A DNA stretch of 64,000 nucleotides from Blastocatellia bacterium (GCA_033763135.1 JANRKY010000294.1:2613-66612), one strand, 5' to 3'; counted from the stretch's first letter, positions 39,486 to 52,946 are shown. The notes: a model not told the origin generated them from the sequence alone. A program made the numbers and translations.

Positions 39486-40934
39486 TCAGGAGATCAGTTC
39501 AGGAATCACGCGGCCTTCGACGAGCGTCGGCACTTCGAGGCGGCCGTTGTGCTTGTAGGCGGTCTTGAATTGATTCAGGCCCATCAGGTGCAGAATCGTG
39601 GCGTGGATGTCGTGAACGTGCGCGCGTTTTTCAATCGCCTTCAAGCCAATCTCATCGGTTGCGCCGATGATCTGCCCGCCTTTGATCCCCGCGCCCGCCA
39701 TCCATATCGAGAAGCCCCATGGGTTGTGATCGCGTCCGTCGCCCTTTTCGTTGAAGGGCGTGCGGCCGAACTCGCCGCCCCAGATGACGAGCGTGGACTC
39801 GAGCAGGCCGCGCGCTTTCAGGTCGGTCAGCAGGCCCGCGATCGGCAGGTCGCTCGACGCGCACATTCGGGAATGGTTGCCTTCCATATTCGTATGCGAA
39901 TCCCATTTGCTGCCCGCGCCGGAATACAACTGAATGAAGCGCACGTCGCGCTCGACCAGACGCCGCGCCAGCAGGCACATCGTGCCGTATTTGTCCGTCA
40001 GCGGATCGCCGATGCCATAGAGCTTTTTCGTCGCGGCGGATTCCTGGCTCAAGTCCACGGCATCGGGGGCGGCGGATTGCATGCGGTAGGCGAGTTCGTA
40101 GGAGTTCAGGCGGGCCAGCAACTCCGTATCTTCCGGTTTGTCGGCGGAATAGTCCCGATTAAGTTGCGTGATGAACTCGATCTTGTTGCGCTGCTGCGCC
40201 TCGCCGATCGCGGCGGGCGTGTTGACGTACAGGACCGGACTGGCGCCCGTGCGAAATTGCGTACCCTGATACACCGCGGGCAGAAAACCCGCGCTCCAGT
40301 TGTTCGGGCCGCCAAAGATGCCTTCGCCATCCGCGAGGACAACGTACGCCGGCAGATTCTGATTCGCCGTGCCCAGGCCATACATCGCCCAGGCGCCAAG
40401 CGAAGGCCGCCCGGCCAGGATCGACCCCGTATTCATCTGGCAGACCGAGCCGACGTGATTCAGGCCATCCGCCCAGCACGAGCGCAGAACCGCGAGATCG
40501 TCCACGTGCCTGGCGATGTTCGGGAGCCAGTCCGAAACCGGAATGCCGCTTCGACCCGATGGGGTGAAGACGCGCCTGCTCGGCATGATCGTATTCGACG
40601 CCGTCCCCATCGCTGTGATCGGACGCCCGAAGGATTCCGGCATCGGCTTGCCCGCGAGTTTCAGCAATTCCGGCTTGGGATCGAAGGTGTCGAGATGCGA
40701 CGGTCCGCCCTCCATAAACAGCCAGATGACGGATTTCGCGCGCACGCGATGATGCGGCTTTTTCGGCGCGAGCGGATCGAGCGGGGCTTTCGCTCCATCC
40801 GCGCCGAAGCCGTCTTCGCCGAGCAACGCGGCCAGCGCCAGCGCGGAAAGCCCGGCGCCGCTCTGCTGCAGAAAGTTGCGACGACTGCGAAGCGTCTGCT
40901 GTGCGGAATGATAGCCGGTTTCGTATTTCATCAT
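39486..40934 (-). CDS. DUF1501 protein (sulfatase/alkaline-phosphatase-like fold), Tat signal
   Basis: Tat motif LRSRRNFLQQSGAGLSALA. 482 aa, with the characteristic DUF1501 layout ending in ..GRVIPELIS. Paired with a DUF1549/DUF1553 gene 7 nt upstream. Confidence 0.88.
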   Translation of the reverse strand: MMKYETGYHSAQQTLRSRRNFLQQSGAGLSALALAALLGEDGFGADGAKAPLDPLAPKKPHHRVRAKSVIWLFMEGGPSHLDTFDPKPELLKLAGKPMPESFGRPITAMGTASNTIMPSRRVFTPSGRSGIPVSDWLPNIARHVDDLAVLRSCWADGLNHVGSVCQMNTGSILAGRPSLGAWAMYGLGTANQNLPAYVVLADGEGIFGGPNNWSAGFLPAVYQGTQFRTGASPVLYVNTPAAIGEAQQRNKIEFITQLNRDYSADKPEDTELLARLNSYELAYRMQSAAPDAVDLSQESAATKKLYGIGDPLTDKYGTMCLLARRLVERDVRFIQLYSGAGSKWDSHTNMEGNHSRMCASSDLPIAGLLTDLKARGLLESTLVIWGGEFGRTPFNEKGDGRDHNPWGFSIWMAGAGIKGGQIIGATDEIGLKAIEKRAHVHDIHATILHLMGLNQFKTAYKHNGRLEVPTLVEGRVIPELIS

Positions 40935-40941
40935 TCTCTCC

Positions 40942-52200: not shown

Positions 52201-52946
52201 AGGGTGCTTGTGCCGAATTCCGCCGCATAATTGCTGGTCTGCACGCGAACTTCCTTCACCATGTCGTTGTTCGGCGTAATGATCGAACCGTTGTTGGCGC
52301 CGATGTCCTTGGTGATCGAGCCGTCGATGCTGATGTTGATGTTCTGGCCGCGCTGCCCGTTGACGCTGAAATTGTTGTTGGCGTTGCCTCCTTGCTGGAA
52401 GCCCGTGAAATCGAGCGTTTCGGCTTCGGGGCCGACGACGCCGGGCAGGATGCGCAGCAGTTCGAGGCTGCTGCGGGAGATCAGCGAGAGATTTTCAATC
52501 TGCGAGGACGTGATGGTGTAGGCCTTTTCGCCGGTTTCGGTCTGAATCTGCGCGGCTTCGCCCGTGACGGTGACGGATTCGGTGGCGGCGCCGATCTCGA
52601 GCGAGATGCTCAGCCCGCGCGTCTCGCTCGGGCTGAGGGTCAGTCGGTTGAGCGAATAGGCTTTGAACCCCGCGCTTTCGACCTTGAGGGTAAAGGCGCC
52701 GGGCGTGAGCGCCGCGAAGACAAACCCGCCTTCTTGATTGGTGGTGGCGGTGCGTTCGAGCAGGGTCTGTTCATCGCGCAACAGCACCTTCGCCCCGGGG
52801 ACGACGGCGCCGCCGGGGTCGGTGACCGTGCCGCGCAGTTGCGCGCTGCCGCTGGTCTGGGCTGCCGCGGAACTCGCCAGCGAGACGCAGCAGAACGCGA
52901 ACAAGGCATACAGCGCCAGCTTATGAATACACAGTTTCATTCTCAT
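49251..52946 (-). CDS. TonB-dependent receptor with an N-terminal CarboxypepD_reg-like domain
   Basis: 1231 aa. Signal peptide followed by QLRGTVTDPGGAVVPGAKVLLRDEQTLLERTATTNQEGGFVFAALTPGAFTLKVESAGFK. C-terminus is ..RVQLQVRFTF. Confidence 0.9.
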   Translation of the reverse strand: MRMKLCIHKLALYALFAFCCVSLASSAAAQTSGSAQLRGTVTDPGGAVVPGAKVLLRDEQTLLERTATTNQEGGFVFAALTPGAFTLKVESAGFKAYSLNRLTLSPSETRGLSISLEIGAATESVTVTGEAAQIQTETGEKAYTITSSQIENLSLISRSSLELLRILPGVVGPEAETLDFTGFQQGGNANNNFSVNGQRGQNINISIDGSITKDIGANNGSIITPNNDMVKEVRVQTSNYAAEFGTSTLQVTAVTKSGGRQFHGSLYEYARNQNLNANDRARVIARLPRPANSQYYTGGNIGGPVRLPSALGGDRLRDRLFFFYGLEHQRQRNAQNIAFGVVPTLKQRQGDFSEFLPCANIGNPAGCTTTYLGQNRTLTVPRNPPTGFTVGQSLVSNNFNLAPFKDPSNLGPTMLNTMFPAPNYIDPNQRYNYVTGETLPLDRSDMKLRVDYKVSDRTNLYVRLAREKEDEEFAYGVWGRSSMTDLYSHTNGDHIGRSAAVNMVTVFDPTLTMEVVFSASKLKLFHDYIDYDKVSPQALGLSNLKLPFGYLGKSAPTLQVTGVNNLSQTFVGNNQGETPLFAFNSSYSVNSNVTKIKGAHSYKFGGLLEQVNKKQNLGNQYNGRIVLGGVTNGTGNSFGNLYVGRPVSVQQSNLTPEGEFRAWNFDLYAQDSWKARPHLTFEYGVRFVTMPNNKERNGYETFFDVTKYQRGAGAFLNGDLQRPNGIQLVSRGEAIPGIVEDPAPRLAPRLSFAWDVSKKGNFVVRGGYGLFYNRSSGNFQYSPALQNAPNYINPIARFDSAATAFKDRVQNLTLDRLNQVDLARVPLSITPVSLNPEGNNITRTANQSVSIARRLMWGNVLEVGYVGNAVRYLPQVRNLNVVPLGTLLSGTITPATGPAANLANPIHRIALSADAFRSRLPFPDFNAINFREYVGTSQYHSGQLTLARQRGNLTYTAAYTFSKALGLLGGDGGTIDPLDARNRSYGVQAYDRTHNFVVNYNYNLPRLIKRGGNKFAGGVLNGWQLSGISSFQSGAPLRIFFSGGQTGATGTGLNAANAWQAWFGTNAFAGAGTVNTGGIVPILLRNPQIAGSGAKVGEKLYDVSAIVIPAFGQSGAYQSPYYARLPNRNNHDMTLMKNFRFREGKNIQLRAGLFNIFNQAFASAQGDIDMTLQTDCRVRVNGVPNGIGGTVNNVCDPTGGYFFTDTTLQNFGKVITKRGNRRVQLQVRFTF

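Follow-up and report, generated by a model that had tools for sequence, protein, structure and literature searches.

Gene pairs encoding DUF1549/1553 and DUF1501 proteins are among the most abundant unexplained modules of soil and aquatic Planctomycetes, Verrucomicrobia and Acidobacteria. Modules combining DUF1501 with PSCyt/PSD1 domains have been described in the Planctomycetes-Verrucomicrobia group (Kamneva et al. 2012, PMC3542564; He et al. 2017, PMC5615132), and our literature search found no functional study of PSCyt2/PSD1/DUF1501 proteins or of periplasmic PF04230 proteins. Six-bladed lanthanide-PQQ dehydrogenases have been placed in CAZyme clusters with separate dihaem cytochrome c4 partners (bioRxiv 10.64898/2026.07.10.737718), and the additional Asp of the D-x-D motif is essential in lanthanide-dependent PQQ alcohol dehydrogenases (PMC10875860). 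A locus fixing the biochemical context of the DUF1549/1553-DUF1501 pair would be valuable; the one presented here, from a 64,000-nucleotide stretch of Blastocatellia (Acidobacteriota) DNA (the window), does not. It is probably what remains, after trimming, of a larger PUL-like glycan island headed by a TonB receptor, with at least three separable modules, and our verdict is of an ordinary eroded island of known modules in a soil acidobacterium. Because such an island is eroded and often reshuffled, it says little that is new about the pair.

Six exported gene products

Six intact minus-strand genes, from TonB-dependent receptor (TBDR) to DUF1501, occupy positions 39486-52946. With the starts used, the gaps between them are 341, 4, 50, 171 and 7 nt, and these start choices match homologue lengths (420 aa for the pyruvyl-transferase-like protein, PT; 750 aa for the DUF1549/1553 protein). 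A first-pass annotation of this DNA had proposed the same layout, gaps and domains, and the ORF listing and Pfam bore it out. Its placement of all six products in the envelope also held, with export signals on each N-terminus: Sec-type by inspection in the TBDR, beta-helix, PQQ and DUF1549 proteins, and Tat motifs in PT (TRRTFL, 44602-44619) and DUF1501 (SRRNFL, 40869-40886). A consensus promoter/terminator scan did no better than chance (2 where 2.6 were expected, 17 where 14.8 were), so no weight is given to a -35/-10-like site ahead of the beta-helix gene or to a weak hairpin and T-run where PT stops. Neither Rfam nor tRNA scanning of the window gave a hit, and no known riboswitch is therefore recognized upstream of the TBDR.

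The receptor gene (49251..52946; 1231 aa) matches CarboxypepD_reg, Plug (26.5 bits against a cutoff of 23.9) and OMP_b-brl_4 (E = 3.7e-139), so that its product has a plug and a large beta-barrel, ending in RFTF; no SusD-like Pfam match was found in the six genes or their flanks. The following gene (46960..48909) encodes a secreted 649-aa right-handed beta-helix protein with a weak resemblance to Pel9A. Its Pfam matches are weak (Beta_helix 16.7 bits against a cutoff of 25.9, E = 0.006; Chondroitinase_B E = 0.03), its homologues, of which 6243 share 60-90% identity, carry a weak precomputed match to the Pel9A-like family PF22842, and one of them (P0279) scores 27.0 for Beta_helix. A PDB sequence search found no relative of the protein. 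The product is likely a polysaccharide lyase or hydrolase.

The PQQ gene (44679-46955) opens with a signal peptide and a dihaem cytochrome c module (46365..46955; Pfam, NCBIfam) and ends with an eight-bladed PQQ dehydrogenase domain (44679..46208). Both of its CxxCH motifs, CSACH (46830-46844) and CSTCH (46563-46577), lie in the N-terminal 197 aa, and the C-terminus has none. Pfam returned PQQ (1.4e-84) and Cytochrom_C; the methanol/ethanol family TIGR03075 scored 493.1 bits, above its curated cutoff of 480.05, and the best NCBIfam match, TIGR04528 (acido-empty-quinoprotein group A), reached 520.3 bits against a cutoff of 650. The Glu, Asn and catalytic Asp ligands are present, with GECALTGY, TGNPGP and HDWD aligning with the reference motifs. 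Alignment to 1YIQ, 1KV9 and PedH (6ZCW) places a D-W-D with the lanthanide-type extra Asp at 45366-45374, where PedH has D-F-D and the Ca-type enzymes 1YIQ and 1KV9 have D-Y-T/D-F-T. By this signature, the PQQ enzyme is predicted to be of the lanthanide type. HCT (45903-45911) stands in place of the vicinal Cys-Cys of all three reference enzymes; Cys-Cys is missing family-wide, and the ligands and D-W-D are kept across the PQQ family. Relatives of the dihaem module are mostly stand-alone periplasmic dihaem cytochromes, with fusions to PQQ or Laminin_G_3 domains among the rest.

PT (43366..44628) matches PS_pyruv_trans (PF04230; 1.8e-9, 38.4 bits against a cutoff of 25.3), and RRxF is invariant in 22 of its homologues. 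Structure prediction with a Foldseek search, as the first-pass annotation had suggested, gave a predicted GT-B fold, in that the AF2 model (pLDDT 73) best matched GT-B glycosyltransferases and UDP-GlcNAc 2-epimerases at a TM of about 0.5. The CsaB equivalog model TIGR03609 scored 19.5 bits against 213, and no PDB sequence relative was found. PT homologues (6413 at 65-96% identity) extend across phyla, and the neighbours in 80 PT-centred loci are diverse: sulfatases in 15, GFO_IDH_MocA in 10, TBDR in 9, PQQ in 3 and beta-helix in 2. DUF1501 occurs near PT in 11 loci by ORF clustering and in 13/80 by tblastn, and a single verrucomicrobial clade (L026, L028, L082, L033) has a tight operon running from PT through PSCyt1/2-PSD1 to DUF1501. 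PT is thus supported as a GT-B protein, exported by Tat, of a kind usual in glycan loci rich in sulfatases.

The last two genes encode a DUF1549/DUF1553 (PSCyt2/PSD1) protein with a Sec signal (40942..43194) and a Tat-exported DUF1501 protein (39486..40934). Pfam support is strong (PSCyt2 3.7e-86, PSD1 3.2e-93, DUF1501 1e-143), and PF07583 and PF07587 followed after 7 nt by a Tat-signal PF07394 constitute the described module. PSCyt1 (PF07635), an N-terminal cytochrome c domain that is common in the PVC form of the module and present in the L004 homologue, was not matched in the DUF1549/1553 protein. The invariant CARCH of its DUF1549 part (42460-42474), a predicted haem site, has a CxxCH counterpart in 67/67 homologues and gave no cytochrome Pfam match. 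The three CxxCH motifs reported by the first-pass annotation (PQQ residues 38 and 127, DUF1549 residue 241) are all real and conserved in homologues, with about 0.009 expected by composition. The AF2 model of the DUF1549/1553 protein is poor (pLDDT 60, below 50 around the CxxCH; no match at E <= 0.001 in a PDB fold search), and therefore no structural inference is drawn from it; PDB sequence searches found no relatives of either member of the pair. In DUF1501, RRxF is at least 95% conserved among 61 sequences, and the alignment to sulfatases (hhalign probability 82%) is limited to the C-terminal half, from which the protein is predicted to be alkaline-phosphatase/sulfatase-superfamily-like. 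A formylglycine sulfatase was considered and rejected, as the C/S-x-P-x-R motif is absent; in the same motif check, the two true sulfatases of the window carry CTPSR and CTPTR.

Deletion scars and changing neighbourhoods

The 341-nt gap between the TBDR and beta-helix genes contains what is left of a GMC-family FAD oxidoreductase gene, 78 internal codons (48934..49167, minus strand) that share their frame with the beta-helix ORF and lack a start codon. By tblastn, the relic is 81% identical in amino acids to residues 269-346 of an intact 539-aa GMC protein (L016:4474-6093, minus strand), whose gene matches GMC_oxred_N and GMC_oxred_C; the relic by itself matches GMC_oxred_N weakly (E = 0.16). 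At a further locus, L171, the beta-helix gene is immediately preceded by an intact, paralogous GMC gene. Within the 171-nt gap between PT and DUF1549 lies a 27-codon relic of a LacI-family regulator (43231..43311, minus strand), 85% identical over 82 nt to LacI genes of L165, L006 and L005 (blastn) and 81% identical in amino acids to LacI residues 117-143 (tblastn). On these alignments, the LacI relic marks the scar from loss of about 5.6 kb comprising LacI-TBDR-GH39, and the two "intergenic" gaps are pseudogene relics or deletion scars that the first-pass annotation had missed. Between PQQ and PT, an indel junction (44664..44665) falls where L165 has a 2.1-kb GH-like 6/10 gene (blastn; Pfam of L165:526-2535).

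The first-pass annotation had proposed a search for conservation of the gene order, and the six-gene set proved to be broken even in the nearest relative, L165, at 94-99% protein identity (PQQ 99% over its last 148 aa, PT 95%, DUF1549/1553 94%, DUF1501 97.5%). The order there is PQQ-GHL6/10-PT-LacI-TBDR-GH39-pair-RraA-MR_MLE-MFS-SDR-x-GH88; junctions with the window are clean by blastn, and similarity stops right after the DUF1501 stop codon (breakpoint 39485). Orders also differ in other Blastocatellia relatives, L006 and L168. L006 carries three units led by a TBDR, and its dihaem module is joined to Kelch instead of PQQ; the N-terminus of this dihaem-Kelch protein is 70% identical over 197 aa to the dihaem module of the window; an orthologue of the TBDR 3' end (78% nucleotide identity) precedes its beta-helix gene, and its pair is 83-91% identical to that of the window although the PQQ domain is replaced by Kelch. 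L168 carries a paralogous pair (33% and 41%), the beta-helix gene, one further gene, PT in reverse and PQQ. The pair, beta-helix, PT and dihaem-propeller genes co-localise in four related genomes (window, L006, L165 and L168) in different orders, with a paralogous pair in L168. This weighs against our reading, as it could reflect selection for co-localisation and not inheritance alone, and so does the tight verrucomicrobial operon. The tight operon-like spacing in the window is partly due to recent deletions, a caution that such spacing can be an artefact.

The pair itself is far more stable than its surroundings. Among the 80 closest DUF1501 metagenome loci (65-79% identity), DUF1549/1553 lies directly upstream of DUF1501 in all 64 with enough flank, whereas PT, beta-helix or dihaem-PQQ genes are nearby in none of the 80 and a TBDR of any kind in only 10. 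A tie between the pair and its PQQ/PT/beta-helix neighbours is not supported by these loci. Nor does the locus offer the testable functional context for the pair that had been expected, since the pair is free-standing and its neighbours change even between near-identical genomes. PT-linked verrucomicrobial DUF1501 proteins (57-58% identity) were considered as a PT-specific orthologue group, which was rejected because the 80 soil relatives are closer and lack PT.

A probable remnant glycan island and its alternatives

The proposal of an oxidative glycan-processing system survives in part: its sugar context and its oxidative element stand, and the single six-gene system falls. The former is seen in a convergent plus-strand GH35 beta-galactosidase-like gene (35694..39380; 1228 aa) and in L165, with GH39, GH-like 6/10, GH88, LacI, MR_MLE, RraA and an MFS sugar transporter; the latter consists of the dihaem-PQQ dehydrogenase, with metal and PQQ ligands intact, and the GMC relic. 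A periplasmic, partly oxidative glycan context is thus supported. We propose that one module of the remnant island would group the TBDR with the Pel9A-like beta-helix enzyme and with a periplasmic dehydrogenase whose electrons leave through a dihaem cytochrome c module at its own N-terminus, the dehydrogenase being a putative lanthanide-type PQQ propeller here and Kelch in a relative, with a GMC flavoprotein formerly also there. A second would be the Tat-exported GT-B protein PT, which in several phyla accompanies loci rich in sulfatases, oxidoreductases and GHs, and a third the self-contained DUF1549/1553-DUF1501 pair. Oligosaccharides of an acidic or decorated glycan may pass inward through the TBDR and be cleaved by the beta-helix enzyme; the PQQ enzyme could oxidise a hydroxyl or aldehyde, passing electrons to the respiratory chain, and the GT-B and DUF1501 enzymes might remove or remodel substituents. 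DUF1501 would then act as an alkaline-phosphatase-superfamily, non-formylglycine hydrolase, with DUF1549/1553 as a putative CxxCH-bearing helical partner. What the sequences show directly is the domains, the export signals, the active-site residues, the relics and how the neighbourhoods vary; the substrates, reaction order and physical coupling suggested here derive from family membership and neighbours. The compact co-directional layout probably arose from recent loss of LacI-TBDR-GH39 and most of a GMC gene, and is not a conserved operon.

An alternative hypothesis pairs the beta-helix enzyme with a periplasmic oxidoreductase of exchangeable type (GMC, dihaem-PQQ or dihaem-Kelch), the glycan being first oxidised and then cleaved, and makes PT and the pair accessories for the same decorated glycan, so that co-localisation would be selected though order is free. 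Consistent with this, a redox gene adjoins the beta-helix gene in 5/8 contexts (window, L006, L168 at 3 kb distance, L169 with an FMO-like flavoprotein and Kelch, and L171), the window and L006 share the 4-nt beta-helix/dihaem junction, and 13/80 PT loci have a pair within 10 kb, these pairs representing at least six paralogue lineages. However, few contexts are sampled, most of them within one lineage, the beta-helix contexts of L170 and the P0243 contig have no redox partner, and close relatives of the pair lack such neighbours; DUF1501 pairs are also so dense in these phyla (three within 21 kb in L051) that proximity is expected by chance. We consider this coupling unlikely. Were it true, it would give the pair a first biochemical context; that Blastocatellia and related soil bacteria possess such an unrecognised route, with PT and the pair as de-decorating accessories, is likewise doubtful.

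The PQQ enzyme might also be a lanthanide-dependent dehydrogenase of small-molecule alcohols or aldehydes, in the island by chance and unrelated to glycans. Its best PDB relatives, quinohaemoprotein and PedH-type alcohol dehydrogenases, point this way, and D-W-D fits the lanthanide signature (PMC10875860). Against this, rearrangements have left the PQQ gene next to beta-helix or PT in the window, L165, L168, L011 and L017, P0400 joins the dihaem module to Laminin_G_3, a carbohydrate-binding domain, and lanthanide-PQQ enzymes are placed in CAZyme clusters by the 2026 preprint (10.64898/2026.07.10.737718), making an unrelated role very unlikely. That all six genes make up one dedicated oxidative system, as first proposed, with the PQQ dihaem and the DUF1549 CxxCH linked into an electron-transfer chain for DUF1501 and the others, is highly improbable and largely refuted by the lack of synteny that the proposal itself had named as refuting: six exported, co-directional products with short gaps, conserved CxxCH motifs far above chance and the recurrence of the same families in L006, L165 and L168 speak for it, but order and content differ even in L165, the 171- and 341-nt gaps are scars, the closest pair loci lack these neighbours, Kelch replaces PQQ in L006 while the pair stays, and no observation connects the haems of the PQQ enzyme with the CxxCH of DUF1549; the PQQ enzyme has its own two-haem outlet on a module whose relatives are ordinary stand-alone cytochromes and which Kelch also carries.

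For the remnant island, L165 would be the better experimental entry, as its pair lies between TBDR-GH39 and sugar-acid catabolism genes with a LacI regulator. Several families are under-described: N-terminal-dihaem, lanthanide-type, Cys-Cys-less PQQ dehydrogenases; Tat-exported GT-B PT-like proteins; and Pel9A-like beta-helix proteins beside redox enzymes.

Comparison with known systems

PT resembles ketal-pyruvyl transferases (CsaB, WcaK, Pvg1p; PF04230) in its above-gathering score and predicted GT-B fold. In contrast to these, its Tat signal directs it to the periplasm, where phosphoenolpyruvate is not available, the CsaB model failed, and its loci are degradative and not biosynthetic. The pair follows the DUF1501 modules of Planctomycetes-Verrucomicrobia in its PSCyt2/PSD1 gene followed by a Tat DUF1501, its invariant CxxCH and its many contexts, often near sulfatases or carbohydrate genes; it differs as an acidobacterial copy without PSCyt1, CBM or Laminin_G, the literature cases being mostly from PVC bacteria.

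Like type II quinohaemoprotein alcohol dehydrogenases (1KV9, 1YIQ) and PedH/XoxF, the PQQ enzyme has an eight-bladed propeller, Glu/Asn/Asp ligands and fused haem c, and the extra Asp of D-x-D is a PedH/XoxF feature. Unlike the type II enzymes, its haem part is an N-terminal dihaem module instead of a C-terminal monohaem one, and HCT replaces Cys-Cys. With the enzymes of the lanthanide-PQQ preprint, it shares a periplasmic, predicted PQQ/lanthanide character, a carbohydrate cluster and the presumed delivery of electrons to a dihaem cytochrome; it is eight-bladed rather than six-bladed, and its cytochrome is fused. Compared with PULs, the locus has no SusD partner and hence not the adjacent SusC/SusD pair of the Bacteroidota type, its regulator and second receptor are deleted, and one of its six genes is CAZyme-like by weak assignment. 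It nevertheless keeps the arrangement of TBDR-led CAZyme clusters, in which secreted enzymes, both carbohydrate-active and accessory, come after a receptor, and its relatives have the PUL-like features of a LacI regulator, GH39, GH88 and sugar-acid catabolism genes.

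Gene content of the locus and its surroundings

The locus (39486-52946) holds six minus-strand open reading frames spaced by 341, 4, 50, 171 and 7 nt in the ORF listing, as the first-pass annotation had described. They encode a TonB-dependent receptor (TBDR; 49251-52946) with Pfam matches to OMP_b-brl_4 (3.7e-139), CarboxypepD_reg and Plug; a beta-helix protein (46960-48909); a dihaem-PQQ protein (44679-46955; PQQ 1.4e-84 plus Cytochrom_C); a pyruvyl-transferase-like protein, PT (43366-44628; PS_pyruv_trans, 38.4 bits, cutoff 25.3); a DUF1549/DUF1553 protein (40942-43194; PSCyt2 3.7e-86, PSD1 3.2e-93); and a DUF1501 protein (39486-40934; 1e-143). 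Pfam recovers most of the domains claimed for these genes; the beta-helix assignment is weak, at 16.7 bits against a cutoff of 25.9. The proposed export of every product is borne out by N-termini that resemble export signals in all six, including Tat motifs in PT (TRRTFL) and DUF1501 (SRRNFL), whose RRxF core occurs in all of 22 PT homologues and is conserved to 95% or more among DUF1501 relatives. The three CxxCH motifs are present, against about 0.009 expected, and all are kept in homologues.

Downstream lies a convergent GH35 gene whose product is very long (1228 aa). It shares the plus-strand stretch 32425-39380 with a gene for a Tricorn-like S41/PD40 protease of 1069 aa, which likewise converges on the locus. 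On the upstream side stand DUF2227, an M48 peptidase and ribonucleotide reductase. The names of homologous proteins put the organism in Blastocatellia (Acidobacteriota). A second PUL-like cluster (14775-22334, minus strand) comprises a TBDR (18834-22334), a BNR/sialidase-like protein and two sulfatases of the formylglycine type (CTPSR and CTPTR). Adjoining it is a 503-aa BamB-like PQQ_2 beta-propeller protein (12984-14495, plus strand), and a similar family occurs among PT neighbours in 10 loci. GC content falls to 0.50 within 4001-6000, compared with 0.57-0.69 in the remaining window, and the ORF at 5218-6144 has no Pfam match.

Gene order in relatives and remnants in the two long gaps

The six genes had been read as one dedicated periplasmic oxidative glycan-processing system. 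That reading failed its own synteny check, which was made from three seeds: PT, DUF1501 and the closest relatives found by protein look-up. Among 80 PT-centred loci from species-representative genomes, searched by tblastn with the six window proteins, the full family set occurred in one only (L006); dihaem-PQQ lay near PT in 3, the beta-helix gene in 2, DUF1501 in 13 and a TBDR in 9. Unbiased clustering of PT neighbours returned sulfatases (15 loci), DUF1501 (11), GFO_IDH_MocA (10) and TBDRs (9), along with esterases, Laminin_G_3 and FAD oxidoreductases, which is a generic glycan-degradation context. A tight operon of PT, PSCyt1/2-PSD1 and DUF1501 does exist in one verrucomicrobial clade (L026, L028, L082, L033); since its members are mutually 78-92% (PT) and 86-89% (DUF1501) identical, it represents essentially one event. 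Outside that clade, the pairs of DUF1549/1553 and DUF1501 near PT come from different paralogue lineages, and they are sometimes very dense (three within 21 kb in L051).

Seen from DUF1501, among its 80 closest metagenomic relatives (65-79% identity), DUF1549/1553 lies directly upstream in all 64 loci with enough flank. None of the 80 contained PT, beta-helix or dihaem-PQQ genes, nor GH39, MR_MLE, RraA, LacI or GH88, and any TBDR was found in only 10; sequence of 5 kb or more was available upstream of the pair in 21 loci and downstream of it in 22.

The nearest relative, L165, is 99% identical to the window in PQQ (last 148 aa), 95% in PT, 94% in DUF1549/1553 and 97.5% in DUF1501, and its order is PQQ, GH-like 6/10, PT, LacI, TBDR, GH39, pair, RraA, MR_MLE, MFS, SDR, an unknown gene and GH88. 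Gene order and content also differ in L006 (TBDR, beta-helix, dihaem-Kelch, x, TBDR, PT, LacI, TBDR, pair, MR_MLE) and in L168, where a paralogous pair (33% and 41%) is followed by beta-helix (91%), an unknown gene, a reversed PT (77%) and PQQ (78%). In a further locus, L167, the pair (84% and 89%) occurs with none of the other four families. Several MAG records named Heliomicrobium, Heliobacteriaceae or Bifidobacteriaceae (L006, L007, L009, L011, L013, L017, L022-L024, L027, L079) contain genes sharing 70-85% identity with proteins from Blastocatellia or Verrucomicrobia, and on this sequence evidence the labels are probably wrong.

Aligned by blastn, the window and L165 share four collinear blocks: the PQQ 3' end, up to window position 44665; PT from 44664, where L165 has 2,127 additional bases with the GH-like gene; an isolated 82-nt match (43313-43232) to the middle of the LacI gene; and the pair from 43197, with likeness ending straight after the DUF1501 stop codon. 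The LacI relic (43231-43311, minus strand) retains 27 codons, 81% identical to LacI residues 117-143, shares its reading frame with the DUF1549 ORF when that is extended upstream (40942-43365) and also matches LacI genes in L006 and L005. The window has therefore lost most of LacI, a second TBDR and GH39. Likewise, the 341-nt gap between the TBDR and beta-helix genes contains 78 codons in one frame (48934-49167, minus strand), in frame with the beta-helix ORF, which match residues 269-346 of an intact 539-aa GMC FAD oxidoreductase (L016) at 81% identity; in L171 the beta-helix gene has an intact paralogous GMC gene immediately upstream. Judged from these relics, both long gaps (341 and 171 nt) are scars, and the compact, operon-like layout is therefore recent and derived. 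Overall, we consider it likely that the locus is an eroded PUL-like island built of separable modules.

Properties of the individual modules

The PQQ domain is nearest to quinohaemoprotein and PedH-type alcohol dehydrogenases; the protein passes TIGR03075 (493 against a cutoff of 480), and its top NCBIfam match, 'acido-empty-quinoprotein group A', falls under cutoff (520 against 650). The alignment shows that the Glu and Asn ligands and the catalytic Asp are retained; at the position of D-F/Y-D in lanthanide enzymes and of D-Y/F-T in calcium enzymes the protein reads D-W-D, and the additional Asp is reported to be essential for lanthanide binding (PMC10875860). Reference enzymes have a vicinal Cys-Cys, whereas the window protein has HCT; unlike in type II enzymes, its haem part is N-terminal and dihaem. 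The ligands, D-W-D, HCT and both CxxCH motifs are kept in relatives down to 42% identity. The dihaem module (46365-46955, minus strand) is itself separable: its 197 residues are 70% identical in L006 (L006:3215-5128), and the two loci share the 4-nt beta-helix/dihaem junction with 84% nucleotide identity through it, but the propeller that follows residue 197 is of the PQQ type in the window and of the Kelch type in L006. An exhaustive search for the module returned chiefly stand-alone dihaem cytochromes of 250-300 aa, together with proteins in which it is joined to PQQ (several 50% clusters) or to Laminin_G_3 (homologous protein P0400).

The beta-helix family has a weak precomputed Pel9A-like PF22842 match, and one homologue exceeds the Beta_helix cutoff. 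In a small, lineage-biased sample of eight contexts, a redox gene lies beside or near the beta-helix gene in five (L169, L171, L006, L168 and the window; GMC, FMO-like flavoprotein, Kelch or dihaem-PQQ) and a GH29 fucosidase adjoins it in two. This recurrent adjacency is the best support for the oxidative part of the original idea.

The PT model (pLDDT 73) has a GT-B fold, with GT-B glycosyltransferases and UDP-GlcNAc 2-epimerases as best structural matches. As a predicted Tat substrate, PT should act in the periplasm. Phosphoenolpyruvate is absent from that compartment, so a periplasmic site is at odds with a phosphoenolpyruvate-dependent enzyme and makes a role as transferase unlikely. Family members are highly conserved, sharing 65-96% identity across at least five phyla (Acidobacteriota, Verrucomicrobiota, Planctomycetota, Kiritimatiellia, Lentisphaerae), in loci rich in sulfatases, oxidoreductases and GH genes (L005-L084), and a literature search on Tat-exported PF04230/GT-B proteins found no publication. 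A TBDR and a beta-helix gene precede two tandem PT paralogues at L022:8904-11766.

The C-terminal half of DUF1501 aligns to sulfatases (hhalign, 82%); the C/S-x-P-x-R motif is absent from it and present in the window's two true sulfatases. CxxCH is invariant in 67 of 67 DUF1549/1553 homologues, Pfam finds neither a cytochrome match nor a PSCyt1 domain in the window protein, and its structural model is too poor to interpret.

A possible pathway and its known counterparts

Starting from the established domain content, export signals, active-site residues and neighbourhoods, we infer substrates and coupling as follows. Glycan could be imported via the TBDR and cleaved by the beta-helix enzyme; the putative Ln-type PQQ enzyme would then carry out an oxidation and pass the electrons out by way of its own two haems, while the periplasmic GT-B enzyme and a DUF1501 hydrolase with its CxxCH partner may each remove or remodel substituents. 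As a testable context for the function of the pair, the locus proved no better than other loci, and an intact island of the L165 type would be a better experimental target.

The DUF1501 and PSCyt/PSD1 pair, with its Tat signal, CxxCH and variable, carbohydrate-leaning neighbourhoods, has already been described and its function given as unknown (PMC3542564, PMC5615132); we found no later functional work on it in the literature. A 2026 preprint independently proposes that imported oligosaccharides are oxidised in the periplasm by Ln-PQQ enzymes partnered by dihaem cytochromes (10.64898/2026.07.10.737718). With the pair, TBDR-led CAZyme clusters and Ln-PQQ enzymes within such clusters all known, the locus therefore belongs to known kinds.
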